A stretch of 46,305 nucleotides of DNA from a virus. The stretch lies in UHGV virus genome UHGV-1364013; one strand, given 5' to 3'. The notes below the pieces were generated by a model. It was not told the origin of the DNA, did not search any database, and saw only the letters and a program-made list of their open reading frames with translations. Positions 9,865 to 33,862 of the stretch are shown here, piece after piece. The stretch's first letter is position 1. Every line of letters begins with the position of its first letter. A program made the translations under genes and the position numbers.

Positions 9865-9966
9865 CTTTTCTCTGCCCAGGCTTGCTTTATCGGCCGGGGG
9901 CTCAAGCTTGCCGCTGGTGTCCAGCTTACGGGCCTTCATCGCGCTGCTTGTCAAAGAACCGTGCGT
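9865..9966. repeat. Copy 1 of the 101-bp direct repeat (contains TTGACA; on the minus strand it encodes MKARKLDTSGK...)
   Basis: Over 90% identical to 11037-11137. Confidence 0.7.
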
Positions 9967-10280: not shown

Positions 10281-10994
10281 CTAGGCTGCCTTGATTCCGA
10301 ACCTTCCAATGAGCCATTCCCTACCGAGTTGCGTCCATCTACGGTGGTAGACAACCTTGTCGTTCTCAAGCACTTCCTGCTTGATGTGGACGTATCCGAG
10401 TTCAGCATATTCTGCGTACAGGACATAGGTTCCGTTCTGCTTGTATTGGATGTGCTGTTCACAGAGGACCCGATTGAAGGCTACGGCACTGCGGAATCCG
10501 AGCTCCTTAGCGATTTCTGTTGTGGTGTACGTCTTGCGGACGTGAGAGAGGATAGCGACGCGCTTTTCAGCATTGACGCGTGCCTCGCGTTCTTCCTTGA
10601 GGGCGGTGAGGAGTTGGATACCGAATTCCGGGTTGTCCAGAATCTGATTGACGACATTCTCGGTGGCGTAGATGCCATGCTTGCGGATAGACGGTACGAC
10701 ATCACCAGCAAGCCACTTTTGGAACGGCAAGGCTGTGGGCTTATCCGATCTGGCAAGGAAAAAGTACAGACCGGGCTCGGAAATGATGAGCATTTCCTGT
10801 TCGCCGCCGGGGGTAGCAATCCGATTGCTACCCTTCCATTCATCCGGTACAGCCTGAAAAACGGTTGTCATGTTTGTGCTGGCATACCCCAACGCTACGG
10901 CCACATCCTTCGCCACAAACCACGGTTCGCCATTGTGTTCGACAACGCGAACCTGCCCAAACTCTTCTTTCTGAAACAACATCAGTTCGTTCAT
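10281..10994 (-). CDS. Bro-N/KilA-C antirepressor-like protein
   Basis: MNELMLFQKEEFGQVRVVEHNGEPWFVAKDVAVALGY is a Bro-N domain. The C-terminal ORF6C/KilAC-like region is present. Confidence 0.6.
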   Translation of the reverse strand: MNELMLFQKEEFGQVRVVEHNGEPWFVAKDVAVALGYASTNMTTVFQAVPDEWKGSNRIATPGGEQEMLIISEPGLYFFLARSDKPTALPFQKWLAGDVVPSIRKHGIYATENVVNQILDNPEFGIQLLTALKEEREARVNAEKRVAILSHVRKTYTTTEIAKELGFRSAVAFNRVLCEQHIQYKQNGTYVLYAEYAELGYVHIKQEVLENDKVVYHRRWTQLGREWLIGRFGIKAA

Positions 10995-11036
10995 GCTTGA
11001 TCCTTGGTTGAGGTTGACGTTCCAAAGTCCCTTTTC

Positions 11037-11137
11037 CTTTTCTCTACCCCGGCTTGCTTTATCCGCCGGGGGCTCAGGCTTGCCGCTGGTGTCCAGCTTA
11101 CGGGCCTTCATCGCGCTGCTTGTCAAAGAAACGTGCG
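11037..11137. repeat. Copy 2 of the 101-bp direct repeat
   Basis: See copy 1. On the minus strand it reads in-frame into the Bro-N ORF. Confidence 0.7.
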
Positions 11138-11155
11138 GGCATCCCGCGAAATTCG

Positions 11156-11395
11156 TTATCCGGCGTAAAGCCATTCTGCCTTTGATGCCCAACCGTCTAC
11201 TATCCAAGGCTTTTCGAGGTAGGCATCCTCATCCAGCGGGGCACGCCCGTCATCCTGCGGGCTGTAGTTCTCGGCCTTGACCACCTTGCCGCCATGCTCC
11301 TCCGCGAACTCGCGGGCCTCTTCGAGTGTGTCGCATTCGTCGACGCATTCAGTGCCGTTGATGAAGTTGATCACGAGGTAGGTGGGTGTGGTCAT
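11156..11395 (-). CDS. Hypothetical acidic protein (first gene of the leftward operon)
   Basis: SD aaaggagaat before the ATG. Confidence 0.45.
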   Translation of the reverse strand: MTTPTYLVINFINGTECVDECDTLEEAREFAEEHGGKVVKAENYSPQDDGRAPLDEDAYLEKPWIVDGWASKAEWLYAG

Positions 11396-12801: not shown

Positions 12802-13914
12802 ATGGAACGCGGTTTTTTCAAAATCTATCGAAAAATAGAGGACTCGAAGGCGTGGAGTCGGGGCGCACTGTATCGTGGGCTGATGATTACCCTTCTCCAG
12901 AAGGCGAACTGGAAGCAAGGGTACTTTCACGGGCAAAAAATCCTGCCGGGTCAGCTGGCGTTCAGCGGTGAGTGCCTTGCGGATGAACTCGACATACCCA
13001 GAACTTCGGTTGTTCGCATGTTGCGGAATCTTGAACTTGACGGCTTCCTGACGCGCTCAAACATGAACAACCGATATACGCTTGTAACTATAACAAATTG
13101 GCATAGTTATCAGTCTGTAGAAAACAACTGTGGTCAACCGATGGTCAACCACTGGTCAACCGATGGTCGACCAGTGGACACTATCAAAGAAGGTAAGAAA
13201 GAAAGAATAAATACACCCCCCTTACCCCCCACGGGGGGGAAAGTGTGTGCGGACGAGTACGAACTCAGTTGCGGAACCAGTGCCAACAGCATGGATACCA
13301 GGCCATGTGAGGCCAGTTTGGCCGCAGATGAAATCAAGGCTCAGAGCAGCCTTCAGGCGGGCGGCATGGAACCTAGGCCGTGCTGCCCCCCGAATGGCGA
13401 TGTTACGAACACGTCGGACACCGGTAGCCGCGCCAACAGCATGGACACCAGGCCATGTGAGGCGAAGGGCCGAAAAGCGAAGACACCGCGTATGCCGAAA
13501 GGGGCGGATCTTCCACCGTACACCGAGCAGTTCGAGCGAATTTGGGCCAAATACCCGCGCAAGGATGCCAAGGGGAAGGCTTACAAGGCCTACATGGAGC
13601 TTTTGAAAGCTGGCGCATTGCCGGAAACGGACGACCTCATCGAGCGCATAACGTATCGCAAGTTCGAGCCCGATTGGGAGCGAGAAAACGGGAAATACGT
13701 GCCCTATTTCTCGACATGGCTGCACAATCGTGGCTGGGAAGATGCGGGCTGTTTCAGCGATACGACGCCGGAACAGCGGGCGAGGAATGAAAGGGCTTCC
13801 GCGATTTATGCGAAGTACAACGGCGGGATGTGGAAACCGGGCCTGACTGTCGAGCAGGTGGAGGAGAACTGCGACCGCATGTATGCCGAGCTTGAGGCCG
13901 AGGGGTTGCTGTGA
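12802..13914 (+). CDS. Replication initiator/replisome organiser (O-like N-terminal domain)
   Basis: N-terminus MERGFFKIYRKIEDSKAW...LQKANW is a phage replisome-organiser type. Internal iterons present. SD gggaaagg before the ATG. Confidence 0.5.
   Translation: MERGFFKIYRKIEDSKAWSRGALYRGLMITLLQKANWKQGYFHGQKILPGQLAFSGECLADELDIPRTSVVRMLRNLELDGFLTRSNMNNRYTLVTITNWHSYQSVENNCGQPMVNHWSTDGRPVDTIKEGKKERINTPPLPPTGGKVCADEYELSCGTSANSMDTRPCEASLAADEIKAQSSLQAGGMEPRPCCPPNGDVTNTSDTGSRANSMDTRPCEAKGRKAKTPRMPKGADLPPYTEQFERIWAKYPRKDAKGKAYKAYMELLKAGALPETDDLIERITYRKFEPDWERENGKYVPYFSTWLHNRGWEDAGCFSDTTPEQRARNERASAIYAKYNGGMWKPGLTVEQVEENCDRMYAELEAEGLL
13131..13215. repeat. Four tandem 12-bp iteron-like repeats (GGTCAACCGATG-type) followed by an AT-rich stretch, inside the initiator gene
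   Basis: tggtcaaccgatggtcaaccactggtcaaccgatggtcgaccagtgg, then aagaaggtaagaaagaaagaataaata. Confidence 0.45.
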
Positions 13915-15701
13915 TGGCCGCCCGTTGTCTTGAATCCGCGCTCAGGTTGCAGGCGATGGGATGCAGCGTCATTCCGCTCGTTCCGCAGTCAAAGCGCCCA
14001 TTGGCAAAGGCTCTTCCCGGCGGAAAATGGGAAGAATTTCAGCATAGGATACCCACGCCTGAAGAAATCCGCGGCTGGTTTGAAATCGAGCCCAACGCAA
14101 ATATCGCACTGGTATGCGGCGAAGTTTCGGGCGTGGTGGCGATCGATGTCGACGGGCCGAAGGGTCAAGCGTGGTTCAAGTCTCATATGCCGCCCCCCAA
14201 CTGGTACCAAATGACTTCGGCAAAGGACAAGTTCCACGCGTTCTATCAGCATCCCGGCGGGGGAAGGCGTATTCCTCCGTCCGTCTCGCTGGTGAACGAT
14301 GAAATCGACGTGCGCGGGGATGGCTCCTATGTCGTGTTTGCTCCGTCGATACACCCTTCCGGGGCGGAGTATCGGGCGCATCAGCTTGATGGCTTTTCCG
14401 GCATAGATTCCCTTGTCCCCCTGCCGGATATCCAGCTGGTTCGAGTGGGTGAAGATAAATACGAGGTCAAAGAAGTCCAGGATGGTTCGGCGACGGATCA
14501 TGATGCTGACGTTCAAAAGGGCGGTAGAAATCAGGCGATTACCAGTCTTTGCGGGAGGATGTACGCCAGGGGGCTGCGGGGGGAAGAGGTTTTGCTGTAT
14601 GCGCAGGCATGGAACCGTGCGCACTGCAAACCACCGTTGCCGGACACGGAAGTGAACACGATTGTGCGGAGCATGGCTTCGACACACAGGAACAGAAACC
14701 CACAGAAGCTCAACGCAGGGGGGGTATCCCGCTGGGTTGCCATGTCTTCGGGCGAGTTTTGCATTGCAGATATTTACCGCGATCTTGGCATCCTGAAAGC
14801 CGAAGACAGGGAACTGTGCCAGCAGGAACTTCGGGAGCTTCTTTCTCGTGGGGAAATCGAGCCCTGCGGGAAACGCTCCGGATGGTATCGCAAGCGTGAA
14901 AGCGGATTGGAAGTCATAGACCTTGTACAAGAGGAAACCCCACCGTTGGATTTGTGGCTCCCCTTTGGACTTCACAGAATGTGCTTTGTCCAGCCCCGGA
15001 ATATCATCGTGATCGCTGGCGAAACAAACTCGGGGAAGACGGGCCTGCTTTTCAATTTTTGCTACATGAACAGGCACAAGCACAAGATCCGCTATCTCTC
15101 TTCTGAAATGACGCCGAATGAAATCAGGGGACGCATAGAACGTTTTGGGCTTGCGGTTGAAGAATGGTCGAAATTTACAACGTTTATTCAGCGTTCCAAT
15201 CATTTTCATGATGCCATAGACCCAAATGGCATCAATATTGTTGATTTCTTGGAAGTTTATGAAGATTTTTCGAAAATAGGGGGAGACATCAAAAAGATTT
15301 TTGATCGTCTTCAAAATGGAATCGCAATCATTACGATTCAGAAGAAGAAAGGGGAGATGTTCGGAAGAGGTGGGGAATTCACTCTCGAAAAAGCAAGACT
15401 CGGCATTTCTCTTTTCACGCACGGGCATCTCCCAAACGGCATAGTTGGAAGCATGAAGGTGACCAAATGCAAGAACTATAGATCAGGATTCAATCCTGAA
15501 GGAAGAGAACAGTTCTTTAGGCTGCTTGATGGTTATTTTTATGACTCCTCACCTATTCAGGAGATACCGGATTACAACCCACATTTGGTTTTTTGGGCTG
15601 AAAAAGACAGGAAACGCCTCATTGATTCAATCGGCGATTACTGCAAGCAGATTGCAGAGATTCAAAAGACGCAAGAAATAATAGATTTTTACGGAGAATG
15701 A
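13911..15701 (+). CDS. Bifunctional primase-polymerase (Prim-Pol + PriCT-1) fused to a RecA/DnaB-like P-loop helicase domain
   Basis: SVIPLVPQSKRP...ALVCGEVSGVVAIDVDG is Prim-Pol. AITSLCGRMYARG is PriCT. IIVIAGETNSGKTGLLF is Walker A. The start overlaps the upstream stop (GTGATGG). Confidence 0.65.
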   Translation: MMAARCLESALRLQAMGCSVIPLVPQSKRPLAKALPGGKWEEFQHRIPTPEEIRGWFEIEPNANIALVCGEVSGVVAIDVDGPKGQAWFKSHMPPPNWYQMTSAKDKFHAFYQHPGGGRRIPPSVSLVNDEIDVRGDGSYVVFAPSIHPSGAEYRAHQLDGFSGIDSLVPLPDIQLVRVGEDKYEVKEVQDGSATDHDADVQKGGRNQAITSLCGRMYARGLRGEEVLLYAQAWNRAHCKPPLPDTEVNTIVRSMASTHRNRNPQKLNAGGVSRWVAMSSGEFCIADIYRDLGILKAEDRELCQQELRELLSRGEIEPCGKRSGWYRKRESGLEVIDLVQEETPPLDLWLPFGLHRMCFVQPRNIIVIAGETNSGKTGLLFNFCYMNRHKHKIRYLSSEMTPNEIRGRIERFGLAVEEWSKFTTFIQRSNHFHDAIDPNGINIVDFLEVYEDFSKIGGDIKKIFDRLQNGIAIITIQKKKGEMFGRGGEFTLEKARLGISLFTHGHLPNGIVGSMKVTKCKNYRSGFNPEGREQFFRLLDGYFYDSSPIQEIPDYNPHLVFWAEKDRKRLIDSIGDYCKQIAEIQKTQEIIDFYGE

Positions 15702-16079: not shown

Positions 16080-16419
16080 TCTGTCCTTGGGCTGGTTCAT
16101 GTTTGAGTGCCCAAGGTATTGTGAAATCTTCGGCCCCGGTGCGTGTGTTGGGGTATTTGACAAAAAGGAGTGTGTGGTCAACAACCCCTGCCTAAAGGCA
16201 GAGGCTTGATAAAAGCCTTGGTTGACTAGCCTCAGACCGCCCAAAAGGCGGACTACGTTGGTTGGGAATGCATAGGCACCGCGGGATGACAATCCTAGTC
16301 CCGCGCTCTGCGGTTCGCGGTTAAAAGCTCTGAGAGGTAGGAGCGGTGCCGCGAACAGGTAAACCCCTTCCAACATTGGCGAAGGATTACAACCGGTCGC
16401 AAGACCGAGGAGACAAATC
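16080..16419 (+). ncRNA. Structured non-coding region (many G.U-compatible hairpins, nested long-range pairing); candidate ncRNA
   Basis: Stems: ccttgggc/gcccaagg; ctgcc-taaa-ggcag; aggctt-gata-aagcct; ccgcc-caaaa-ggcgg; cgcggga/tcccgcg nested inside ggcaccgc/gcggtgcc. No convincing ORF. Confidence 0.35.
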
Positions 16420-16902
16420 TTGAGAGTATTTGTTTTAAACAAACGAGGGCAACCGCTGATGCCGTGCTCACCGGCAAAAGCGATGAGCACATACAGGGAA
16501 GAATCGTTGTCGGAAACACTGCAAGACATGTCCGACCGTTTCGGAAAGCCCTTTGTCCGGCACATGATTGAACGCTTCGCGGGTATAACTCTTATTATTC
16601 CCGTCAAAAGCCGGAAGACGCGGCTAGCTCGGGAATTGTGCACCTTCTTGGGGCAGGATGCCCTTTCCGACTTTCTGCACACCTATGGCGGTACGAGAAT
16701 CTATATCCCCACTTTGCGCCGGGCGAAGATCCGCGCACGGGACATGGACATCAACGCCGAGCGGGACGAGTTGGCTCGCAAGGGGCTGAGTGAAAGAGCG
16801 CTTGTCGCCAGGCTCGCCACGCTGCACGGGCTTTCCGAACGGCAGGTGTGGCGCATTTTAAAACAGCCGAGAACCTCGGACAACAGGGAGGCGGCGTCAT
16901 GA
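16420..16902 (+). CDS. Mor/C-family late transcriptional activator with an N-terminal 20-aa RRXRR/PLMP-like segment (TTG start)
   Basis: C-terminus YGGTRIYIPTLRR...ELARKGLSERALVARLATLHGLSERQVWRILKQ is Mor-like. N-terminus (L)RVFVLNKRGQPLMPCSPAKA. SD gaggag 7 nt before the TTG. Confidence 0.5.
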   Translation: MRVFVLNKRGQPLMPCSPAKAMSTYREESLSETLQDMSDRFGKPFVRHMIERFAGITLIIPVKSRKTRLARELCTFLGQDALSDFLHTYGGTRIYIPTLRRAKIRARDMDINAERDELARKGLSERALVARLATLHGLSERQVWRILKQPRTSDNREAAS

Positions 16903-17509: not shown

Positions 17510-17762
17510 CATCGACATCACGATACTTGGTGAACAGGCTCTTGCGGCACTCATGCAGCGGCTGTCGGAAGCACGCGGGAAGCACCCTGTTTTCGCGGAG
17601 GGCAAATACCATGCGCTCGGCGTTATCGGGGGGGAGTACCGTGAGCTTGTACACGCCGTTGAGCACGAAACTCCGGAGCGTATCCGCGACGAAGCCCTCG
17701 ATGTAGCTGTGACCGCACTGCGGCTATGGCTTGGGGAACACAAGGTTGGTGCTCATGAGTGA
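17502..17762 (+). CDS. MazG-like nucleotide pyrophosphohydrolase (small)
   Basis: HPVFAEGKYHALGVIGGEYRELVHAVEHE...DEALDVAV is MazG-type. SD gggagg before the GTG. Confidence 0.4.
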   Translation: MHNIDITILGEQALAALMQRLSEARGKHPVFAEGKYHALGVIGGEYRELVHAVEHETPERIRDEALDVAVTALRLWLGEHKVGAHE

Positions 17763-18123
17763 CGTGTGGGTGAGCCAGTTCGAACTGTCAGAGGCCATCG
17801 GTGACGTGGGGGCGGTCATCCTCTGCGCACAGTGCGGTGGATGTTCATACTTTATCCCCCGGAAGCCCACAGGTTTTCTTCTGGAGTTGCTTGGTCGGCA
17901 GCGTATGGCGGCCCTCTGCACCGAATTTGGGGGGATGCAGATCGTCGTGCCCAACCTGCGCCGTGGTGAACCGTTCAAAGGACGTATCCTGTCCCGTCTG
18001 GAAGCAGGGGAGAAGCCGGACGCCATCGCCGAAGCCCTTGGCGTGACCACCAGGTACGTCCGTCGGCTCAAAAAGCAGCTTTGCGGGAACCCGGAACCAC
18101 AGCAGCAATATCGGCTGTTGTAG
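17755..18123 (+). CDS. Mor/C-family late transcriptional activator (second paralogue)
   Basis: EFGGMQIVVPNLRRGEPFKGRILSRLEAGEKPDAIAEALGVTTRYVRRLKKQL. Confidence 0.55.
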   Translation: MSDVWVSQFELSEAIGDVGAVILCAQCGGCSYFIPRKPTGFLLELLGRQRMAALCTEFGGMQIVVPNLRRGEPFKGRILSRLEAGEKPDAIAEALGVTTRYVRRLKKQLCGNPEPQQQYRLL

Positions 18124-18126
18124 AAT

Positions 18127-18139
18127 CTTGTTCACGGTG
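18127..18139 (+). promoter_or_regulatory. Conserved motif CTTGTTCACGGTG (copy 1), upstream of the lysis cassette; candidate late-promoter activator site
   Basis: Identical 13-mers occur at 25842-25854 and 33381-33393 (TTTGTTCACGGTG). Confidence 0.45.
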
Positions 18140-18188
18140 ATCCTCTCTTGTTCTCCTGTGAGAGAGTGGACGTAGGAGGATTTTCTTT

Positions 18189-18575
18189 ATGGCTGTTCTT
18201 CCCTTGCGTCACTTCTCCCCGGTCGAGTTCCGCTGCAAGTGCGGGTGCGGCGCGGGCATGGAGAAGATGGACGCCGACCTGCTCCAGATGCTCGACGAGG
18301 CCCGCGATCTGGCGGGCATCCCGTTCCCCCTTTCTTCCGCCTACCGCTGCCCGAAGCACAACAAGGCGGTCGGCGGTGTGCCCACCTCAGCGCACACTCG
18401 CGGCTATGCCGTGGATATCCGCTGTGTGGATTCCCATTCCCGTTTCGTCATGCTGCAAGCCCTGCTTGAGGCCGGATTCCGGCGCATCGAGCTGGCTCCG
18501 ACATGGATTCATGTGGACAACGACCCCGACAAGCCGCGCGACGTGGCCTTTTACCAGCATGGAGGCAAGTACTGA
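18189..18575 (+). CDS. Endolysin, peptidase M15 (L-Ala-D-Glu/D-Ala-D-Ala peptidase type)
   Basis: FSPVEFRCKCGCG...SAYRCPKHNKAVGGVPTSAHTRGYAVDI...HVD is the Peptidase_M15 zinc-site signature. Confidence 0.7.
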   Translation: MAVLPLRHFSPVEFRCKCGCGAGMEKMDADLLQMLDEARDLAGIPFPLSSAYRCPKHNKAVGGVPTSAHTRGYAVDIRCVDSHSRFVMLQALLEAGFRRIELAPTWIHVDNDPDKPRDVAFYQHGGKY

Positions 18576-19670: not shown

Positions 19671-20224
19671 TGGGAGTTGTGAGCATGGCGTCAAGATTTG
19701 ATTGGGAATCCATCCGTGCCGAGTACGAAGTAGGGGCGAGCCAGTCCGATCTGTCCAAGCGTTACGGTGTGAGCCGGACAGCCATCCAAAAGCGCATCCG
19801 GGCCGAGGGCTGGGTGCAGGACATTTCCGGCACCGTGAACCGCATGGCGGAGGCCAAGGTTGTGGGCGTGGTTGCAGGCTGCAACCCTCAAAAAAAGGCC
19901 GAAGCCTTGGACCGCGCCGCCGAAGCCAAGGCCGCCGTCATCACCCGCCACCAACGGGAGTGGGATCGACATCAGGCCCTCATTGATGAGGCGTTGTCCC
20001 TGGGCAGCTTCGACAAGGCCAAGCTCGCCAAAATCACAGCCGAGACGATCAAGATCCGGCAGGAGGGCGAGCGCAAGGCGTGGGGCATCGTTGACAAAGC
20101 CGCGTTGGATCACACTTCATCCGACGGTTCGCTATCTCAGCGTCCGGTGGATCTCTCGCACCTCTCTCCGGACGAGCTGCTTCGCCTGACAAAGGAAGCC
20201 TTCAAAACGCCGGATCATGAGTAG
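19670..20224 (+). CDS. terS: Terminase small subunit (HTH-containing); alternative ATG start at 19685
   Basis: Lies directly upstream of terL. N-terminal HTH LSKRYGVSRTAIQKRIR. Stop overlaps the terL start. Confidence 0.5.
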   Translation: MGVVSMASRFDWESIRAEYEVGASQSDLSKRYGVSRTAIQKRIRAEGWVQDISGTVNRMAEAKVVGVVAGCNPQKKAEALDRAAEAKAAVITRHQREWDRHQALIDEALSLGSFDKAKLAKITAETIKIRQEGERKAWGIVDKAALDHTSSDGSLSQRPVDLSHLSPDELLRLTKEAFKTPDHE

Positions 20225-23200
20225 CCCCGCCATCCTTTCCGATATCCGGAAGGCGCTGGCCCGGAGCTGTCTCGCGGCCTTCGTGCGCTACACCATGCCC
20301 GGCTACCGCATGGGATGGGTGCATGAGGAAATCTGTTCCGAGCTGGACGCCTTCCTTGCCGATGTCGTAGCTGGACGTTCCCCGCGCCTCATGCTGACCA
20401 TGCCCCCGCGACATGGGAAACTGTGCGCTGATGATACTCCTGTTTTGACGGTTGATGGGTGGAAAACTCATGGTGCGCTTAAGGTTGGTGATTATGTATT
20501 TCACCCAAGTGGCAAACCTGTGAGGGTTGTTGCTGTGGGCGAGAAAAATTTTGCCACTCATTCTGTTGTTTTTACCAATGGCGACATAATAGATGTGCAC
20601 CTTGATCATGAGTGGCGGGTGTATGACAGGACTAAACCCGGATATAGAACAGTTGAGACACGATACTTTGTGGAGCCAAGCAAAAAAACTAAGGCGCTTA
20701 GGAAGCTGGATAGCGGTATCCCAGACACCAGAGGGCACAGGTATTTGTATCAGGTGGACACAGCTGATGCTCCCCAATGGCCTGCCGTAGAACACGTTAT
20801 CCCGCCATACGTTTTGGGCGTGTGGTTAGGTGATGGAACGTCAATCGCGCCCAGAATAAACATGGCTCCTGATGACGCTTGTGTCGTCAAAATGGAGTTT
20901 GAACGACTAGGTGTGCCAATAACTGGAACATGGGTGCATAGAGATACTGGAGTTGAAACTTTTTCATTTGCCAGCGGCGTGAAAAATAGAAGAAATATAT
21001 TTTCGCAGGCTCTAAAAGATGCTGATCTGCTAAAAAATAAACATATTCCTAATGAGTACAAGCATGATAGCCTAGAAAACAGGCTTGACTTGCTTGCTGG
21101 ACTTATTGATACGGATGGTCATTTTGATAGAAAGACAAACAGATATCGTTTTACAACATCCAATGAGCTGTTAGCGCATGATGTAGAAGAATTGGCCATG
21201 CTATGCGGGTTTGTAGCGCATACAAATATCCCAGCACTAGATAATCGGGAAAGAACGATTAAAAATAAGTCACAGGTTTATGTGGTGTCATTTTTCTTTT
21301 CCGGTGTAGTTGTCCCGTGCAGACTTGAACGGAAAAAAGTTAATAAAACGTTTTCTTCTCTGCGTCGGCGCGTATCCATCAAATGTGTACGAGCGCTAGA
21401 GTCGCCTAAAATGGGGAATTGTATTCAGGTGGATAGTCCAGATGGCTTATATTTAGTTGGCAAACACCTTACGATAACCCACAATAGCGAGCTGGCCTCC
21501 CGCCGCTTCCCGGCCTACGCCTTGGGCCGCTACCCCGATCTATCCGTCATTTCAACGAGCTACGCCGCCGACCTGTCCTCGCGCATGAACCGCGATGTTC
21601 AGCGTGTCATCGACAGCCCGGAATACCGGGAACTCTTCCCGGGAACAGCCCTTTACGGCAAGAATATCCGCACCGTCGGGAACGGCTCTTATCTCCGCAA
21701 CTCGGATATCTTCGAAATCGTGGGGCACGCTGGCTGCTACCGTTCCGCTGGCGTGGGCGGCGGCATCACGGGCATGGGTGGGCATATCGTCATCGTCGAC
21801 GACCCGTTCAAGGACCGGGCGTCCGCCGATTCCCCGACCATCCGCCAGAACGTCTGGGACTGGTACACGTCCACGTTGTACACGCGCCTCGCGCCCGGTG
21901 GAGGGGTGCTCATCATCAACACTCGCTGGCACATGGCTGACCTTTCCGGGCGGCTGCTTGAGGCCGCCGCACGGGGGGAGGGCGACCACTGGCGCGTGGT
22001 AAACTTCCCGGCCATCGCCACGGAGGATGAGCCGCACCGCAAGGCAGGTGAAGCCTTACACCCTGAACGCTACCCGTTGGAGCAGCTTCTTGCCATCAAG
22101 AAAGCCCTCGGCACACGCGACTGGGAGGCCCTGTACCAGCAGCGGCCTACGCCAGACGGCGGCGCCATCTTCAAATCCGAGTGGCTGCGGTTCTGGCTCC
22201 CCAAAGACCTGCCGGAGCAGTTCGACCAGCTCCTTATCTCGTGGGATATGACGTTCAAGGACGGCGACGATACCGACTTTGTTGTGGGGCAGGTGTGGGG
22301 CCGCAAGGGGGCAGACCGCTACCTCCTCGATCAGGTCCGGCGGCGCATGGGATTTACGGACACGGTCGCCGCGTTCCGGGAGCTCGCCGCCAAATGGCCC
22401 GGCGCAGCCCGCAAGCTGGTGGAAGACAAGGCCAACGGCCCGGCGGTCATCGACGCGCTGAAACACGCCGTGCCCGGTATCATCCCCGTGGAGCCGGACG
22501 GCAGCAAGACGGCTCGCGCCCATGCTGTGACCACGTTCTTCGAGGCCGGGAACGTCCTTATCCCGCACCCTGAGCATTGCCCGTGGGCGCGGGAGTACGT
22601 CGCGGAACTGACGCAGTTCCCCGGAGCGCCCCACGACGATCAATGTTTTGCTGCAGGCACTTTAGTTGCGACTTTGCGAGGGGGTATCCCAATTGAAAAA
22701 GTAAAGGAAGGTGATTTTGTTGTGACTCCTCAAGGGTTTAGGCGTGTGTTGTTCGCTGGAAAAACCGGAGAGTCTGTGTTATTGTATCGACATGGAATTT
22801 TTGCAACTGCGAATCATCCGTTCATGAAAACCAGTGGAGAAGTTTGCAAATTTGCAGAAATAGAAAAGTCTGAACTTGTTCACATGACTATAAGGGAGTT
22901 GCTAGTATGGATATTCCGAAAAGAGTTGAATTTAATGGCGTCACCTATGCCCTCATGGCAGGGGGGAAATACTATCTTAGTCAGTCAAAAACAAACGCAG
23001 GTGGGAAAAATCCGAAGGGGCTTCATGTCGCTATTTGGGAATACTACAGTGGCAAGAAAGTCCCTAAAGGGTATGAGATTCATCACAAAGATGGTAATAC
23101 ACATAACAACAATTTTGACAACCTTGAGTGTTTATCACGTTGTGAACACCGCAAAACGGTTAAGCAAAACAAAGAAAAATGCCGTAAGCACCTTGAAGAA

Positions 23201-23717
23201 GTACGCCCTCTTGCTACTGAGTGGCACAGGAGCGAAGAAGGCCGTGCATGGCATCGAGAGCAAAGCAGGAAGGCATACGCAAAAAGAGAGTATACTGAGC
23301 ATGTTTGTGAGTACTGCGGCAAGACGTATAAAACGCGCCATACGGGAAAAAACCGCTTCTGTTCCCATAATTGTGAAATCAAATGGCGATATCACAATGA
23401 ATACGAGCTTGCCGAGGGTGTGTGCCAATGGTGCGGCAAACCGTTCACATACAAGACCGGAACCTGCAGAAAAAACAAAGTACGTAAATTCTGCAGCAAG
23501 TCTTGCAGCACAAGCCACTTCAACGCCCAACGCCGTGCCAGTGTATAACCTCACCGTAGAGGGCGAGCACCTTTATTTTGCTAATGGGGTGCTCGTCCAC
23601 AATTGTGACGCCACCACGCAGGCCCTCCGCGACTTCGATACCAAGCGGCCCATGTGCATCGACACCCGGATACTGCGCCAGCCGCGCATGGAGTTGAGGC
23701 GCATTGGGGGGATTTGA
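20217..23717 (+). CDS. terL: Terminase large subunit precursor with two inteins (mature protein about 493 aa)
   Basis: Exteins carry the P-loop PRHGK(L|S), the ATPase motif VIVDDPFKD and the nuclease domain. Intein boundaries are C...THN|S and C...VLVHN|C. Confidence 0.8.
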   Translation: MSSPAILSDIRKALARSCLAAFVRYTMPGYRMGWVHEEICSELDAFLADVVAGRSPRLMLTMPPRHGKLCADDTPVLTVDGWKTHGALKVGDYVFHPSGKPVRVVAVGEKNFATHSVVFTNGDIIDVHLDHEWRVYDRTKPGYRTVETRYFVEPSKKTKALRKLDSGIPDTRGHRYLYQVDTADAPQWPAVEHVIPPYVLGVWLGDGTSIAPRINMAPDDACVVKMEFERLGVPITGTWVHRDTGVETFSFASGVKNRRNIFSQALKDADLLKNKHIPNEYKHDSLENRLDLLAGLIDTDGHFDRKTNRYRFTTSNELLAHDVEELAMLCGFVAHTNIPALDNRERTIKNKSQVYVVSFFFSGVVVPCRLERKKVNKTFSSLRRRVSIKCVRALESPKMGNCIQVDSPDGLYLVGKHLTITHNSELASRRFPAYALGRYPDLSVISTSYAADLSSRMNRDVQRVIDSPEYRELFPGTALYGKNIRTVGNGSYLRNSDIFEIVGHAGCYRSAGVGGGITGMGGHIVIVDDPFKDRASADSPTIRQNVWDWYTSTLYTRLAPGGGVLIINTRWHMADLSGRLLEAAARGEGDHWRVVNFPAIATEDEPHRKAGEALHPERYPLEQLLAIKKALGTRDWEALYQQRPTPDGGAIFKSEWLRFWLPKDLPEQFDQLLISWDMTFKDGDDTDFVVGQVWGRKGADRYLLDQVRRRMGFTDTVAAFRELAAKWPGAARKLVEDKANGPAVIDALKHAVPGIIPVEPDGSKTARAHAVTTFFEAGNVLIPHPEHCPWAREYVAELTQFPGAPHDDQCFAAGTLVATLRGGIPIEKVKEGDFVVTPQGFRRVLFAGKTGESVLLYRHGIFATANHPFMKTSGEVCKFAEIEKSELVHMTIRELLVWIFRKELNLMASPMPSWQGGNTILVSQKQTQVGKIRRGFMSLFGNTTVARKSLKGMRFITKMVIHITTILTTLSVYHVVNTAKRLSKTKKNAVSTLKKYALLLLSGTGAKKAVHGIESKAGRHTQKESILSMFVSTAARRIKRAIREKTASVPIIVKSNGDITMNTSLPRVCANGAANRSHTRPEPAEKTKYVNSAASLAAQATSTPNAVPVYNLTVEGEHLYFANGVLVHNCDATTQALRDFDTKRPMCIDTRILRQPRMELRRIGGI
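20424..21485 (+). mobile_element. Intein 1 (354 aa) with a LAGLIDADG homing-endonuclease domain, inserted in the terminase Walker-A loop
   Basis: Starts CADDTPVLTVDGW. Contains LDLLAGLIDTDGHF. Ends ITHN followed by +1 Ser. AT-rich relative to its flanks. Confidence 0.75.
22644..23603 (+). mobile_element. Intein 2 (320 aa) in the terminase nuclease domain
   Basis: Starts CFAAGTLVATLRGGIPIEKVKEGDFVVT. Ends GEHLYFANGVLVHN followed by +1 Cys. AT-rich. Confidence 0.7.
22907..23548 (+). CDS. HNH endonuclease ORF nested out-of-frame inside intein 2
   Basis: HHKDGNTHNNNFDNLECLSRCEHRKT is an HNH motif. C-terminal CxxCGK..RFCSxxC repeats. Frame offset +2 relative to terL. Confidence 0.65.
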   Translation: MDIPKRVEFNGVTYALMAGGKYYLSQSKTNAGGKNPKGLHVAIWEYYSGKKVPKGYEIHHKDGNTHNNNFDNLECLSRCEHRKTVKQNKEKCRKHLEEVRPLATEWHRSEEGRAWHREQSRKAYAKREYTEHVCEYCGKTYKTRHTGKNRFCSHNCEIKWRYHNEYELAEGVCQWCGKPFTYKTGTCRKNKVRKFCSKSCSTSHFNAQRRASV

Positions 23718-24241: not shown

Positions 24242-25450
24242 TTGGCTATGGAAAGATTGCAAGCCTACAAGTTCCAGCTCCGCCCCAAAGCTGAGCAGGA
24301 AAGCCTCATGCGGCGTTTTGCCGGATGTTGTCGTTTCCTTTGGAACAAGGCGCTTGCATTGGAAAAAGAGACCTATGAAAAGGAAGGGAAGCGTCTGGGG
24401 TTTTCCTTGCTCTGCGAAGCCCTTCGGGACTGGAAGAAGGAAAACGACACATCTTTTCTTGCTGAAGCCCATTCTCAAATTCTGCAACAAGCGTTGAAAG
24501 ATCTCGATAGGGCCTACAAAAATTTCTTTGCCAGGCGTGCGGATTTTCCGCGTTTCAAGAGAAAGGGGGTTCATGACGCCTTTCGCTATCCGCAAGGTTT
24601 CAAGCTCGATGAAGGCAACAGTCGCATATTTCTACCTAAAATTGGGTGGGTACGCTACCGCAACAGTCGTAAAATAGAGGGAACACCGAAACAGGTGACA
24701 GTTTCTTTGTCCGCAGGGAAATGGTTTGTTTCTATTCAGACGGAACGAGAAATTCTTGAACCGGTGCATCCTTCGCAAAATATTGTTGGCATAGACATGG
24801 GAGTTGCGCGTTTTGCAACGCTCTCCGATGGTTCTTGCATCAAACCGCTGCACAGTTTCCGAAAGCATGAAAAGAAGCTGGCAAAGCTGCAACGCAAATT
24901 GGCAAAACGAGTGAAGTTTTCCGCCAGCTGGCAGAAGCTCAAAGCCAAAATACAGCGCCTGCACCGTACAATAGCCAATGTACGCAACGATTTTCTGCAC
25001 AAGACAACAACGATGATCAGCAAAAACCACGCTCTTGTCGTGATTGAAGATTTGAAAGTGCGGAATATGTCGCGTTCGGCTTCCGGTACGCTTGAAGTTC
25101 CGGGCAAAAATGTGCGCGCCAAGTCCGGCTTGAACAAGTCCATACTGGATCAGGGATGGTTCGAGTTTCGGCGGCAGCTTGAGTACAAGTTGAAATGGCT
25201 GGGTGGAAAGCTGGTTGTCATACCTCCGCAGTATACCAGTCAGACATGCAGTCATTGTGGATGCGTAGACAGAGCAAACAGACCAACGCAGGCGAAATTC
25301 AAATGTACGGCCTGCGGATTTGAATGTAACGCCGACCATAATGCGGCGTTGAACATTCTGGCGGCCGGGCAGGCCGTGACAGCCTGTGGAGCGGGAAGGG
25401 CTCAAGCGCCCGCATTGAAGCAGGAACCCGCCTATGGCGCGGCTCGTTAG
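24242..25450 (+). CDS. tnpB: TnpB (OrfB_IS605; RuvC-like RNA-guided nuclease with a Zn ribbon)
   Basis: RuvC motifs GIDMG, VIEDLKV and NADHNAALNI. Zn ribbon CSHCGC...CTACG. Confidence 0.85.
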   Translation: MAMERLQAYKFQLRPKAEQESLMRRFAGCCRFLWNKALALEKETYEKEGKRLGFSLLCEALRDWKKENDTSFLAEAHSQILQQALKDLDRAYKNFFARRADFPRFKRKGVHDAFRYPQGFKLDEGNSRIFLPKIGWVRYRNSRKIEGTPKQVTVSLSAGKWFVSIQTEREILEPVHPSQNIVGIDMGVARFATLSDGSCIKPLHSFRKHEKKLAKLQRKLAKRVKFSASWQKLKAKIQRLHRTIANVRNDFLHKTTTMISKNHALVVIEDLKVRNMSRSASGTLEVPGKNVRAKSGLNKSILDQGWFEFRRQLEYKLKWLGGKLVVIPPQYTSQTCSHCGCVDRANRPTQAKFKCTACGFECNADHNAALNILAAGQAVTACGAGRAQAPALKQEPAYGAAR

Positions 25451-25841
25451 AGCCGCTACCGATAGGAATCCCCCGACTTTAGGCGGGGGAGGATGTCAAC
25501 CCAGTACTATGTAGCCTGCTGTAATGGTAGACTATTTTTTTTGAAATCGTAACCCCTCCGTACCTTGACTTCTTCCAGCTTTTGTGCTGTTCTTTTTTCA
25601 CGGTGCTTCAAAACACCTTCGCTGGCGGTAGCCAACCCCGAAACGTGGCCTTTTTTGTGCCCTGTCAAGACTTGTATCCTCTTGGCTGTGGTGTATCCTA
25701 CGGACATTGACTCCGGGTGTGGGCTAATACAATACCGATTCGTCGGGAATATGCCCGCTGTCCAGCGACAGTTTTGAGCACCCGGAGTTTTGCTATTTTG
25801 GCGGCTCCAATGAAAGGTGTCCGACATCCATGCACCCGAAC

Positions 25842-25854
25842 CTTGTTCACGGTG
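25842..25854 (+). promoter_or_regulatory. Conserved motif CTTGTTCACGGTG (copy 2), 34 nt upstream of the portal start; TAGCAT -10-like 24 nt downstream
   Basis: See copy 1. Confidence 0.45.
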
Positions 25855-25887
25855 TGTTTTCTTCTTCGCTCATAGCATGATGCCCCC

Positions 25888-27432
25888 ATGAGCAAGAAGC
25901 GCACTTATCGACACGCCACCTCCATACCCCAAGTGCAACCGTCGCGTCGTCTGAATCTCTCCCCGGACGTGCGCGACGGCCTTGCTCAATCCTTGCCGCC
26001 TACGCCCGACGACATCAGCCGGTTGTACGGCCCTGCGAAGACGCTCGGCGCGCCCGAAGATGTGCAGCTTGCGATGGATGCGCGGCTTGCGGATTCCGGC
26101 GTCTATTCCCTGCTCCAGCACTCGCTTGAGCTTGGGGTCGGGATTGCGCCGCAATTCATGGGCTACGGCGTCCTCCAGAACCTTGCCCAGAACGGCCTGA
26201 TCCGTGCCTGCGTCGAGACGGTATCCGACGATATGACCCGAGCATGGATTGAGTTCAAGCGCGAAGGGGAGGGCGGCGACGAGTCATTGCTCACCGACCT
26301 TGCGCAGGCGTGCAATAGGTTCGCACTGCAACGCCTTTTCCATGAGGCGACCGAGCTTGTGGGGTACGAGGGCGGGGCCTTCCTTTTCATCGACACCGGG
26401 TCCGTCGGCCAAGAGCTGGAACGCCCGCTGAACGTCAGCCCGTATTCCGCCGAACTCAGGCCCGGCGGCGTGCTGCGCTTCGTCGTCATCGACCCCGTGA
26501 ACGTCTTCCCCGGCGACTACAACAGCCTTTCACCGCTTGAGCCGGACTACTTCCGCCCGCGCTGGTGGTGGGTGCTCGGGCAGCGGGTGCACGCCTCGCG
26601 CCTCATCCGATTGGTTGCAAACGAATGCCCGGTGCTGCTGCGGCCCGCCTACAATTTTTTGGGCATCCCGCAGGCGCAGATCCTCTGGGATTACGTCCTG
26701 CATTTTCAGGAATGCCGCGCCGCCGAAGCCCGGCTACTGACCAAGTTTTCGCTGACCGTCTTCAAGACGAAGATGGAAGATATCCTGTACGCGTCCGGGG
26801 GCACGGCACAGATCGATGCCCGCATCCGGTACATGATCCAGTCCATGACCAATGACGGCGTGCTTGCCGTCGACAAGGAATCGGAAGACGTGGTCAAGCT
26901 GGAAACCCCGCTTTCCGGCGTGACCGACATCGTGCGCCAGTCCCTTGAAATCCTCGCTGCCCTGAACCGAACCCCTGCGGTCAAGCTGCTTGGCATCAGC
27001 CCGTCAGGGTTCAATGCCACGGGCGAATCGGACATCCGCAACTACTATGACCATGTCAGGAGCCAGCAGGAGAAAGTCCTGCGCGACGGCATCAAGAAGG
27101 CGCTCGACTGTATCCAGCTCTACCTGCGCGGAACCATCGACCCGTCCGTGACGTTCGACTTCGCACCCCTTGGCGAAGAAGACAGAGCGGCCCTTGCGAC
27201 GCTCCAGAAGACCAAGGCAGACACCATCGCCGTCTACATGGATCGGGACATTATCTCTCAAGAAGAGGCCCGGCAGTCCCTTGCCAGTGACCCGGACAGC
27301 GGCTTCTCCGACATAGACCCGGCGGAAGTGCCGCAGGGCAACGGAATGCCCGACGCCCTGCCGGAAGCCGGGGAAGGGGGCTTGATGCCCGACATCGACG
27401 ACGTGGACAAGGCAGGGGCCGTCTATGGCTAA
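25888..27432 (+). CDS. Portal protein (Mu gp29/DUF935-like)
   Basis: 514 aa. Positioned between terL and the Mu-F-like gene. C-terminal acidic tail. Confidence 0.6.
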   Translation: MSKKRTYRHATSIPQVQPSRRLNLSPDVRDGLAQSLPPTPDDISRLYGPAKTLGAPEDVQLAMDARLADSGVYSLLQHSLELGVGIAPQFMGYGVLQNLAQNGLIRACVETVSDDMTRAWIEFKREGEGGDESLLTDLAQACNRFALQRLFHEATELVGYEGGAFLFIDTGSVGQELERPLNVSPYSAELRPGGVLRFVVIDPVNVFPGDYNSLSPLEPDYFRPRWWWVLGQRVHASRLIRLVANECPVLLRPAYNFLGIPQAQILWDYVLHFQECRAAEARLLTKFSLTVFKTKMEDILYASGGTAQIDARIRYMIQSMTNDGVLAVDKESEDVVKLETPLSGVTDIVRQSLEILAALNRTPAVKLLGISPSGFNATGESDIRNYYDHVRSQQEKVLRDGIKKALDCIQLYLRGTIDPSVTFDFAPLGEEDRAALATLQKTKADTIAVYMDRDIISQEEARQSLASDPDSGFSDIDPAEVPQGNGMPDALPEAGEGGLMPDIDDVDKAGAVYG

Positions 27433-31685: not shown

Positions 31686-31768
31686 GGCTCTGCTCAGTAA
31701 TGATAACTTCTGTCCTCTACATGCAAAAAGTAAGCAGAAATGCGCCTCGGTGTTCTGATAGTCGTTCT

Positions 31769-31797
31769 TTGACAAGGGAATAGGGAAAGGATAGAAA
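31769..31797 (+). promoter_or_regulatory. Sigma-70-like promoter TTGACA-17-TAGAAA
   Basis: Perfect -35 and a 17-bp spacer. Confidence 0.4.
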
Positions 31798-31834: not shown

Positions 31835-31921
31835 ATGCGACACTTCCTCCGGGACGTCGCTGTCCAAGTGATTGGCGGCGTCATTGTGGCTGTGGTGATT
31901 CGGTTCATGCTGAACCAATAA
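31835..31921 (+). CDS. 28-aa hydrophobic peptide (MRHFLRDVAVQVIGGVIVAVVIRFMLNQ)
   Basis: SD aaaggagggtactcc before the ATG. Single TM helix. Own promoter and terminator. Confidence 0.4.
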   Translation: MRHFLRDVAVQVIGGVIVAVVIRFMLNQ

Positions 31922-32000
31922 CGCAGTTGCCCCGGTAGGAGGTGCGAACTCCAACCGGGGCGCAAACTTGAGATGATCAATCTCGGGAGGGTGTCCCACG

Positions 32001-32041
32001 GGGCGGCAGGTGTGTCACCACTTGCCGCCCTTCCCTTTTTC
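32001..32041 (+). terminator. Rho-independent terminator (gggcggcagg...cttgccgccc + TTCCCTTTTT)
   Basis: Stem plus T-run. Confidence 0.5.
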
Positions 32042-33374: not shown

Positions 33375-33380
33375 CCGAAC

Positions 33381-33393
33381 TTTGTTCACGGTG
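33381..33393 (+). promoter_or_regulatory. Conserved motif TTTGTTCACGGTG (copy 3), upstream of the connector/tail block; TGTCAT -10-like 24 nt downstream
   Basis: See copy 1. Confidence 0.45.
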
Positions 33394-33448
33394 ATTTCGT
33401 CCCGGCTCTTTTGTCATGATGACCAAAACAACGGAGGGATACAGAGAT

Positions 33449-33862
33449 ATGGCCAGACCCAAAAAGAATACCGCCCCGGAAACAACGCAGGCGACGAAGA
33501 CGGATACCGTAATGGTCGCCTTGAACCGGACGACCGGGATCACGTTCCCCATGCCCGACGGACGCAAAGTGCTCATCGAAGGCAACGCCGCCAGCCTGCG
33601 CGGAAAGGAAAAGGGCGTGCTGCCCGTGGGCGCGTTCGGGCTGACGCGGGTAAACGCCGACGATTGGGCGTACATTGAAAAGACCTATGGCCCGTACATG
33701 GAAATCTTCAAGTCCGGGCTCATCTTCGCGCAGGCGCGCAAGGCCGACGCCGTGGACGAGGCCGACGAAAGGGCGGAACTGCGCAACGGGTTGGAGCCCG
33801 TGGATGTGGAGAACGACCCCAAGGCGCAGACCGAACCGCTCCAGAGCAAGGCGGGGTTCTAA
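33449..33862 (+). CDS. Hypothetical head/neck protein
   Basis: SD ggaggga before the ATG. Confidence 0.4.
   Translation: MARPKKNTAPETTQATKTDTVMVALNRTTGITFPMPDGRKVLIEGNAASLRGKEKGVLPVGAFGLTRVNADDWAYIEKTYGPYMEIFKSGLIFAQARKADAVDEADERAELRNGLEPVDVENDPKAQTEPLQSKAGF

Follow-up and report, generated by a model that had tools for sequence, protein, structure and literature searches.

A 13-bp sequence, CTTGTTCACGGTG, recurs ahead of late gene blocks in a viral genome of 46,305 nucleotides (the window, as we call the whole stretch of DNA analyzed here), and it raises two questions: whether it is part of the promoters from which these genes are transcribed and, if so, which protein reads it. A preliminary description had proposed a late-promoter element for Mor/C-like activators, in parallel to phage Mu. 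In the literature that we searched, no description of this box or of late promoters from Bilophila or Desulfovibrio was found.

Pfam and PHROG scans show the window to be a 46-kb phage genome in which a PrimPol replicase is combined with structural genes of the E217 myovirus type. Its host is Bilophila wadsworthia, as strain ATCC 49260 carries a prophage (NZ_JNJP01000012) with a 98% identical Mor2, the second of two Mor-like proteins encoded in the window. A Mu-like phage could be ruled out, as the replication module consists of PrimPol and RusA with no transposase. B. wadsworthia is a medically relevant gut sulfidogen, and we know of almost no phage biology or genetic tools for it.

Three copies of the box precede three late gene blocks

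The genes and boxes of the window are arranged as follows, with the boxes preceding the lysis/packaging, head, and connector/tail blocks.

Leftward early arm: Rha, AAA_24 ATPase and Bro/ANT genes (Pfam and PHROG scans)
Rightward early arm: PrimPol primase-helicase (13911-15701), Mor1, RusA, a small ORF and Mor2
16483..16902, + strand: Mor1, 139 aa, Mor-family paralog (Pfam Mor, 40.2 bits against a cut-off of 24.9)
17755..18123, + strand: Mor2, 122 aa, Mor/C-like HTH protein (phrog_836, "late transcriptional activator," 1e-13)
18123..18139, + strand: box copy 1 (G AATC TTGTTCACGGTG), which shares its first base with the end of the Mor2 stop codon, upstream of the endolysin gene
18189..18575, + strand: endolysin (Peptidase_M15_3), first gene of the lysis/terminase late unit
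Downstream of the endolysin: lysis accessory genes, TerS and an intein-bearing TerL (20217-23717)
24242-25450: TnpB insertion element, between TerL and box 2
25838..25854, + strand: box copy 2 (G AACC TTGTTCACGGTG), upstream of the portal gene
25888..27432, + strand: portal protein (PF06381, 1.7e-80), first gene of the head unit
Downstream of the portal: MuF, DUF2213, cement protein, major capsid protein (to 31614) and two Bro-N cargo genes
33377..33393, + strand: box copy 3 (G AACT TTGTTCACGGTG), 3 nt past the stop codon that ends a Bro-N cargo gene, ahead of the connector/neck/tail operon
33470..33862, + strand: first connector/tail gene (phrog_2085), its start codon with a Shine-Dalgarno (SD) sequence conserved in relatives
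Downstream of phrog_2085: DUF4054, E217-type collar, neck (terminator), sheath, tube and baseplate

The 13-mer is exact at 18127-18139 and 25842-25854, and the copy at 33381-33393 differs in one base (TTTGTTCACGGTG); every copy lies on the + strand. The common flanks reported for it are real, so that the conserved unit is the longer G-AAYY-TTGTTCACGGTG at the three intervals listed. The first late gene had been placed 30 to 60 nt downstream, which is right for the endolysin (50 nt, ATG 18189) and the portal (34 nt, ATG 25888) but not for the connector gene, which starts 77 nt away (ATG 33470).

The 12-mer core, TTGTTCACGGTG, has three exact copies in the window (18128, 25843 and 33382), all on the + strand and all in ORF-free gaps, which make up ∼8.7% of the window and hold all three boxes. 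Motif copies scattered through coding regions had been named as one pattern that would refute a promoter element, and the scan of the window showed no such scatter. The next best match to the core, with one mismatch, lies at 25594 (16-mer window 25590-25605) in the noncoding tail of the TnpB insertion element, while the remaining ones have at least two mismatches and fall in ordinary coding sequence on either strand. The copy at 25590-25605 is probably unrelated to the promoter boxes: it belongs to the 3′ noncoding part of the insertion sequence (IS), with whose variants it is conserved, and a −10 is missing at 21 nt.

Repetition on its own says little here, as dinucleotide shuffles of the window hold a mean of 0.76 12-mers present three times, and the triple 12-mer alone is therefore not significant; a scan allowing up to two mismatches returned 5 matches against 1.4 expected. 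The significance of the box comes instead from its identical flanks, the strand that it shares with the genes behind it, its ORF-free location and its conservation in relatives.

A conserved −10-like hexamer lies at a fixed distance from the box

No sigma-70 consensus promoter or −35 was found at the three box sites, in agreement with the earlier remark that a good −35 is missing. The usual layout is instead the box, a pyrimidine-rich spacer of 21 to 22 nt, a weak −10 (nAnnnT), 6 nt and an A. The hexamers previously pointed out 24 nt after TTGTTC are present (TAGCAT at 25873-25878 and TGTCAT at 33412-33417), but a better −10 register lies 3 nt further downstream, and we prefer this CATNAT register because it is common to all promoter classes in the comparison. 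The −10 assignments and start sites below are predictions made in this way.

18162..18167, + strand: predicted lysis −10, GAGAGT, spacer 22; predicted +1 at A 18174, the first base of the SD AGGAGG
25876..25881, + strand: predicted portal −10, CATGAT, spacer 21; predicted +1 at 25888, the A of the portal ATG
33415..33420, + strand: predicted connector −10, CATGAT, spacer 21; predicted +1 at A 33427, followed by the SD GGAGGG and ATG 33470

At the lysis promoter (copy 1) the −10 is weaker than at the other copies and the spacer is longer by one base, and the alleles of this hexamer in relatives (GAGAGT at 22 nt, CAGAGT and GAGGGT at 21 nt) are each followed by 6 nt and AGGAGG. At the portal, the hexamer (CATGAT or CATTAT) and its 6-nt distance to the ATG are conserved and the spacer sequence varies; the connector CATGAT is likewise invariant across five spacer variants. 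Two cargo genes complete the series, a Bro-like one with CATCAT at 21 nt and a second one with TATCCT at 22 nt. What is preserved across all of these promoter classes is A-11 and T-7 (A2 and T6 of the hexamer), the most critical positions of a −10.

The 16-mer also occurs 44 times in viral contigs unrelated to this family, and these occurrences served as controls. A2 and T6 are found together at spacer 21 in 70% of 23 independent family promoters versus 14% of the controls, and at spacer 21 or 22 in 87% versus 18%. Pyrimidines make up 79% of the first 15 spacer nucleotides in family promoters and 49% in controls, and the seventh base after the hexamer is an A in ∼90% of the family promoters. 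This A, the predicted +1, falls within the SD AGGAGG at the lysis promoter, within CCAAAACA in the Bro and connector leaders and within the ATG of the portal. With the −10 so assigned, the box would span approximately −49 to −34, centered at ∼−41.5 with a spacer of 21 or at −42.5 with a spacer of 22.

No SD was found upstream of the portal ATG, and together with the conserved 6-nt distance between hexamer and ATG this predicts a leaderless portal mRNA. Two other readings of the region were set aside. Sigma-54 and ECF promoter patterns did not fit on inspection by eye, and a structured lysis-leader RNA pairing an anti-SD CCTCC with the SD AGGAGG found no support in the window, where the minimum free energy is no better than that of shuffles (z = −0.08); the consensus hairpin has −9.5 kcal/mol and modest covariation.

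The box is retained in related Bilophila phages while its flanks are replaced

We gathered ∼90 related loci by a pattern scan of IMG/VR and a scan with the Mor2 protein. As would suit a late-promoter element, the motif is kept in these relatives, always before late or cargo genes and with exchanged surroundings: the box GAAYYTTGTTCACGGTG is invariant across ∼90 related contigs in which both flanks are fully replaced. The exact core occurs in 52 distinct sequence contexts among 89 related loci, and all 52 lie upstream of five gene classes, namely, the endolysin (with three leader alleles), the portal, a Bro-like cargo gene, a second cargo gene and the connector. The Bro-like cargo copy is located 861 to 876 bp upstream of the connector copy, and a contig of the Bilophila family (L063) added a sixth context, with the core TTGTTCACGGTA before another cargo gene. 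Some of the cargo genes that have a box in front of them are not present in the window.

The sequences upstream of the box are unrelated to one another and may be a classical terminator (gccccgaaaggggcttttcttttg) ∼10 nt before the box, an IS end or the stop codon that closes terL or a Bro gene. For box 2, homology to the window starts at 25836/25837 in at least 12 loci, 1 to 2 nt before the box, whatever lies upstream. The gap between terL and the portal is a hot spot for cargo. Where the window has the TnpB IS, L141 has a ParA-like gene, L144 an endonuclease and L149 no insert, and the box adjoining the portal is retained whatever the gap contains. The box after the Mor2 stop is conserved in all relatives, including those whose Mor2 is 68 to 78% identical; these have an endolysin of another family (PF00959) and carry an identical 16-mer both after Mor2 and before the portal.

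Such breakpoints could also be expected if the box were a recombination or module-boundary sequence, the target or end of a mobile element (the TnpB IS or a HEARO) or a chance repeat, with no role in transcription. Homology breaks do coincide with the box, a three-copy 12-mer is not rare alone, and the TnpB element ends ∼25 nt upstream of copy 2. That end, however, leaves the box outside the IS, and relatives without the IS have the box, as do those with other cargo or without any insert between terL and the portal, so that we rejected the box as part of the IS or as its guide or target. The strict co-orientation with genes and the conserved −10 that keeps a fixed distance from the box, including in distant phages whose flanks are unrelated, speak against a boundary or chance repeat too, and the breakpoints are no argument against a promoter since conserved promoters are expected as mosaic joints. 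We consider a sequence with no part in transcription to be extremely improbable, and a late-promoter element to be very likely what the box is.

Several features of Mor2 support a place in the Mor/C family

Two Mor-family genes had been noted upstream of copy 1, and both assignments hold, Mor1 by its Pfam Mor match and Mor2 by its match to phrog_836. The Mor2 of the window scores 18.9 bits against Pfam Mor (PF08765), below the cut-off of 24.9, and 8 of its 11 orthologs match that family at an E value of <0.01, the best at 1.1e-7. Its layout is that of the Mor/C family, whose members have about 120 to 140 aa, an N-terminal region for dimerization, a β-strand linker of the GG-x-x-(I/V)-x-(I/V)-P type and a C-terminal HTH; Mor2 itself has 122 aa. 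The motif GGCSYFIP aligns with GGRQFYIP of Mu C, a second motif reads GGMQIVVP, and the C-terminal HTH (HTH_23, 25 bits), whose recognition helix GVTTRYVRRL is invariant, aligns with the HTH of Mu Mor. Membership of Mor2 in the Mor/C family is thus supported by PHROG 836, the Pfam matches of its orthologs, the GGxxxxxP linker and the C-terminal HTH.

The similarity to the Mu proteins themselves is remote. Profile alignment of Mor2 by hhalign gave a probability of only 9% for Mu C and 24% for Mu Mor, and with an AF2 model of the Mor2 monomer (pLDDT 74.9; a monomer tests the fold poorly, since Mor itself is an intertwined dimer or tetramer) the Mu Mor structure 1rr7 came at rank 26 (E value of 1.3, TM of 0.27 to 0.34). 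A Foldseek search of this monomer model against the PDB gave no match at an E value of <0.1, and a sequence search of Mor1 and Mor2 against the PDB gave no matches.

Mor1 and Mor2 are paralogs (hhalign E value of 2.4e-4; 28 to 32% identity by tblastn), and Mor1 matches Mor2-like genes at an E value of ∼1e-5. Mor1, RusA, the small ORF and Mor2 are translationally coupled, which leaves no room for a Mu-like middle promoter between Mor1 and Mor2.

Distant phages with Mor2-like proteins carry a similar box

A hidden Markov model of the Mor2 orthologs retrieved 923 cluster representatives at an E value of ≤1e-3, which are ∼120 aa long and 33 to 55% identical and mostly have the helix GVTERYVR. We fetched 13 viral and 71 metagenomic loci encoding Mor2-like proteins independently of the box. 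Many of these loci, whose Mor2-like proteins are 36 to 55% identical, contain TTCAGGGTG followed by 21 nt, CAnnnT, 6 nt and an A. The box stands shortly after the stop of the Mor2-like gene in L237 (+15), L224 (+12), L171 (+18) and L185 (+46), followed in these four by 21 nt, (C/T)Annnn, 6 nt and AGGAGG, and further downstream of that gene in L229, L240 and L179; in L179 it lies at +334, before a homolog of the M15 endolysin. Later late genes are preceded by the box, 21 nt, CAT(G/T)(C/G)T, 6 nt and ATG in L176, L178, L193, L218, L227 and L185; the portal layout of the window, with CAnnnT 21 nt after the box and 6 nt before the ATG, recurs in L176, L178, L185 and L218, and such copies are again predicted to give leaderless mRNAs. 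The distant loci have unrelated spacer sequences.

Four distant loci (L185, L184, L224 and L171) have a box that is perfectly palindromic, CACCCTGAA-N4-TTCAGGGTG or ACCCTGAA-N4-TTCAGGGT, with arm and spacer lengths that differ from those of Mu, a symmetry to be expected of a site for a dimeric or tetrameric HTH protein. The dyad of the window box is weak (ACCtTGt / tCAcGGT, 5 of 7 pairs, ∼5% by chance) and its left half is variable (AAYY); compared with the distant palindromes, the right half is kept and only the inner GAA of the left half.

Position 8 of the core is a C in the Bilophila group, which has the helix GVTTRYVRRL, and a G where the helix is GVTERYVR, in at least four subfamilies. 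As a single evolutionary switch, this covariation of base and helix is suggestive only. It would offer a natural specificity pair (C with VTTRY and G with VTERY) for the study of how the Mor/C family reads DNA.

Two loci depart from this pattern: L172 and L180 have the helix GVTERYVR, yet the sequence after their genes is much less similar to the box, with 8/12 and 4/12 core matches. A clean SD-sequestering hairpin of 11 to 13 bp with a T-run is seen in L172 and L180. No repeated boxes were found in L171 and L180, which can be explained by the fact that their late genes form one uninterrupted operon. Among the nearest annotated phages, megablast found one unannotated 211-bp match and tblastn found only gp6 of EBPR siphovirus 4, at 32% identity; downstream of gp6 there is a palindrome, CGGAC-N4-GTCCG, with no clear box architecture.

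Hairpins raise the further possibility that the box is a repressor operator, or a termination or insulator signal, that keeps the late genes off or blocks read-through. In L185, L171 and L176/L178 the box, or a surrounding hairpin with a T-run, resembles an intrinsic terminator, and a classical terminator precedes the box by ∼10 nt in many Bilophila relatives. No hairpin can form, however, from the box of the window or of its close relatives, since the left half is not complementary to the right one. Such a role alone would also leave unexplained why a −10-like hexamer is conserved at a fixed spacing, with an A at +1, and the genes past the terminators need a promoter where no other is present. 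A purely negative signal therefore seems to us improbable.

Mor2 is the candidate reader of the box

Mor1 is absent from L147 and L148, in which the whole rightward early operon is covered, and from all distant box-keeping loci, and in many lineages the gene directly preceding the first box is Mor2-like. For these two reasons we take Mor2 as the candidate binder, and Mor1 is probably dispensable for the box. The preliminary description had credited both Mor/C-like proteins; the comparison favors Mor2, as relatives without Mor1 keep the box.

The promoter architecture itself is silent on the identity of the binder, and the element could be read by another factor, be it Mor1, a Mor1/Mor2 hetero-oligomer, Rha, Bro/ANT, a 384-aa HTH protein or an alternative host sigma factor for which the box would be an extended −35. 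Mor1 is after all a genuine Pfam Mor protein, with its gene 850 nt upstream, and the nearly asymmetric box of the window would likewise fit a sigma factor or a monomer. Against Mor1 and its hetero-oligomer stands the pattern of absence just described. As for a sigma factor, no sigma-factor domain was found in the ∼50 ORFs of the window that were scanned, 16 to 17 invariant bp far exceed the length of a −35 element, and the 21 nt that separate the box from a −10 bearing A-11 and T-7 are in keeping with sigma-70 aided by an activator rather than with ECF or sigma-54 geometry. The perfect palindromes of distant relatives and the Mor2-like gene that always directly precedes the first box in many lineages again point away from another reader, which we judge unlikely.

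The recurrence of the box architecture with Mor2-like proteins, often right after their gene, makes a Mor2 binding site at about −49 to −34 the best explanation, and we consider it probable that the box is the activator site of the late promoters and that Mor2 binds it. The original proposal of a late-promoter element for a Mor/C-like activator is thus supported by architecture, conservation and synteny, from which we infer binding and activation.

A possible mechanism, in comparison with Mu and other late switches

In the mechanism that we propose, the 16- to 17-bp G-AAYY-TTGTTCACGGTG would be the upstream site at which the activator binds to the late promoters in a temperate B. wadsworthia myovirus. 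Mor2 would be made at the end of the early rightward operon and accumulate, and would then recruit host RNA polymerase to three late units, namely, lysis and terminase, head, and connector and tail, with extra late units before cargo genes in relatives. With the box centered at ∼−41.5, Mor2 may act as a class II activator that substitutes for the −35 contact, and promoter activity would depend on TTCACGGTG in the box. Separate promoters would be needed because the late region is broken by cargo (the TnpB element and Bro genes) and by terminators.

In phage Mu, Mor and C bind a 16-bp imperfect dyad centered at −43.5 that replaces the −35 of promoters with a −10 and no −35; the element consists of two 5-bp inverted repeats around a 6-bp spacer, and there are four dispersed late promoters (PMC2582627, PMC4390567). 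A cryo-EM preprint describes binding as a tetramer with contacts to alphaCTD, sigma region 4 and the beta flap (10.1101/2025.05.02.651988).

The parallel drawn previously with Mu holds for the order of activator, box and endolysin, as Mu has C, a terminator, Plys and an SAR endolysin; it fails for the phage itself, which is not Mu-like. As with C and Mor, a small Mor/C-family HTH activator would be made at the end of the preceding transcription phase; as with C, Plys and lys, the activator gene is followed by its first putative target promoter and then by the endolysin; and as with Plys, PI, PP and Pmom (via C) and Pm (via Mor), dispersed promoters would serve the lysis, head and tail blocks. 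A conserved element of ∼16 bp that would overlap or replace the −35 and a recognizable −10 are also shared. Unlike Mu, the phage is nontransposable and has PrimPol, RusA and the E217-type myovirus module, the sequence of its box is unrelated to the C and Mor boxes of Mu, and the dyad is very imperfect in the window. The predicted box center of ∼−41.5 differs from the −43.5 of Mu, the portal mRNA is predicted to be leaderless, and there is no Mor-to-C cascade and no separate middle promoter between Mor1 and Mor2. Mor2 itself, with its two GGxxxxxP motifs, has remote similarity to both Mu proteins.

Small phage activators that drive packaging, morphogenesis and lysis operons from promoters without a −35 are also known from other temperate phages, as Ogr/Delta of P2/P4 and as the RinA/ArpU/LtrC families of Gram-positive phages (PMC3753634, PMC3152322), which resemble the putative Mor2 system in this respect. 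They belong to other protein families and have other site architectures, and they usually act at one promoter upstream of terS, whereas here there are three to five dispersed promoters with one long invariant box. By analogy, the box and Mor2 would be a new example of the known late-gene switch of phage Mu and not a new kind of system, one that would extend the Mu Mor/C paradigm to nontransposable phages.

A broader reading, which we offer tentatively and hold to be possible rather than probable, would join several of these features in an undescribed, widespread type of regulon in gut phages of Desulfovibrionaceae. About 900 clusters at 50% identity make up a divergent Mor2-like subfamily, which would read TTCA(C/G)GGTG exactly 21 nt from a minimal −10, and the same module would be a terminator or insulator (by its palindrome and T-run, in some lineages), a launcher of leaderless late mRNA (with the portal ATG at +1) and a portable joint that gives cargo late expression.

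The pair of activator and box provides a testable model for the timing of lysis and virion production in a common family of Bilophila prophages and could serve as a ready-made inducible promoter and activator for the genetics of Desulfovibrionaceae. Its signature (box, 21 nt, nAnnnT, 6 nt, A) may also help to annotate late operons and late cargo in hundreds of gut phage contigs related to this one. For annotating and engineering phages of Desulfovibrionaceae this should be useful, while to a specialist it will be unsurprising. One further candidate, a 24-bp tandem array with GTTCACGGTG in L055, L085, L115 and L118, proved to be a coding repeat (GGTVNxIC) in an unrelated contig.

Predicted leaderless starts and hairpins at the late box

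The ATG of the portal gene (window 25876-25890 region) has no Shine-Dalgarno (SD) sequence and lies exactly 6 nt downstream of the predicted -10, so that the predicted +1 coincides with the A of the start codon. The same layout, box-21-CAnnnT-6-ATG, is also found before other late genes in four distant phages (L176, L178, L185, and L218). Given the missing SD, the position of the predicted +1, and the recurrence of the layout in distant phages, the late mRNAs of portal and of these other late genes are predicted from sequence to be leaderless.

At the box preceding the endolysin gene, an ATCCTC in the pyrimidine tract immediately after the box can base-pair with GAGGAT, the SD of the endolysin (window 18140-18181); when this fold was tested against shuffled sequences, it was no better than the shuffles. 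A second type of Bilophila wadsworthia prophage (L172, 8395-8432; L180) carries a clean hairpin of 11-13 bp that masks the SD, with a T-run after it. This hairpin shows compensatory changes and holds in its loop a -10-like CAGTGT/CATTGT, and a late start within it would escape termination as well as SD masking. In distant relatives (L185, 9355-9400; L171, 16150-16185; L184; L224), the box is perfectly palindromic, CACCCTGAA-N4-TTCAGGGTG, and T8-9 comes after it; it thus also resembles an intrinsic terminator. A single element may both halt transcription arriving from upstream and seed the late promoter that comes next.

Box-like sequences and mobile elements

Inteins and a mobile element lie in and after the large terminase gene, terL:

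~20420-21483, LAGLIDADG intein in terL
~22643-23655, Hint/intein-splicing intein in terL
24242-25815, TnpB (IS605 OrfB) element between terL and portal

With its two inteins, the terL product (window 20217-23717) reaches 1166 aa. Many relatives are without one or both, and the alignments of these relatives skip from 20420 to 21483 and stop at 22643.

A near-copy of the late box, TTCTTTTTTCACGGTG (25590-25605), differs from it at one core position. It falls within the non-coding 3' part of the TnpB element and is kept in variant copies of the element among relatives. A -10 was sought 21 nt after this near-copy and is absent; the near-copy probably has nothing to do with the late box. There is a borderline match to sRNA-Xcc1 (25711-25795; 53.4 bits, cut-off 53), which stops 15-20 nt short of the homology breakpoint at 25810/25815 and is probably the omega-RNA or the right end of the element. 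Hairpin-forming repeats, GGGGAGGATGTCAA, occur both at 25469-25500 and at 2535-2740; the left arm may thus hold a second IS remnant.

A pattern scan also returned a 24-bp tandem array of 16 copies that includes GTTCACGGTG (L055, 4269-4657; also L085, L115, and L118). The array was ruled out as a set of binding sites: the contig is from an unrelated virus, and there the 24-bp unit codes for a protein repeat of eight residues, GGTVNxIC.

A HEARO element upstream of Mor1

A 305-bp HEARO RNA element (window 16177-16481; Rfam RF02033, the IscB/IsrB omega-RNA; 141 bits) interrupts the start region of the Mor-family gene Mor1, its insertion point lying exactly between SD and ATG. Two related loci, L002 and L139, are without it at Mor1, their homology to the window skipping from 16176 to 16482, and carry a reverse HEARO copy at another place. 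The 3' end of the element contributes an SD, a TTG (16420), and a stretch of 21 codons, in frame with Mor1, that matches the IscB N terminus (PF14239, RRXRR), so the window is predicted to encode an IscB-fragment::Mor1 fusion.

Separately, a box-like sequence, GAAATCTTCGGCCCCGGTG, occurs at 16123-16141, ∼45 nt before the original SD of Mor1, with GAAATTTTTGGTCCCGGTG as its counterpart in one relative. Both of its ends match those of the late box, which is 2 nt shorter. The resemblance may be coincidental, or the sequence could act as a weak or autoregulatory site.

Repeats near the Bro-N genes

A direct repeat of ∼65 bp (9894-9958 and 11066-11130) lies on both sides of a leftward Bro-N/ANT gene (10281-11207). 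One segment of it, TTCTTTGACAAG, with a TTGACA -35-like core, is found again on the + strand ahead of a 28-codon hydrophobic ORF and two rightward Bro-N genes:

31765-31776, + strand, further copy of TTCTTTGACAAG
31835-31921, hydrophobic ORF
32000-32031, strong terminator

The shared TTCTTTGACAAG with its TTGACA suggests a sigma-70 promoter common to the cargo genes.
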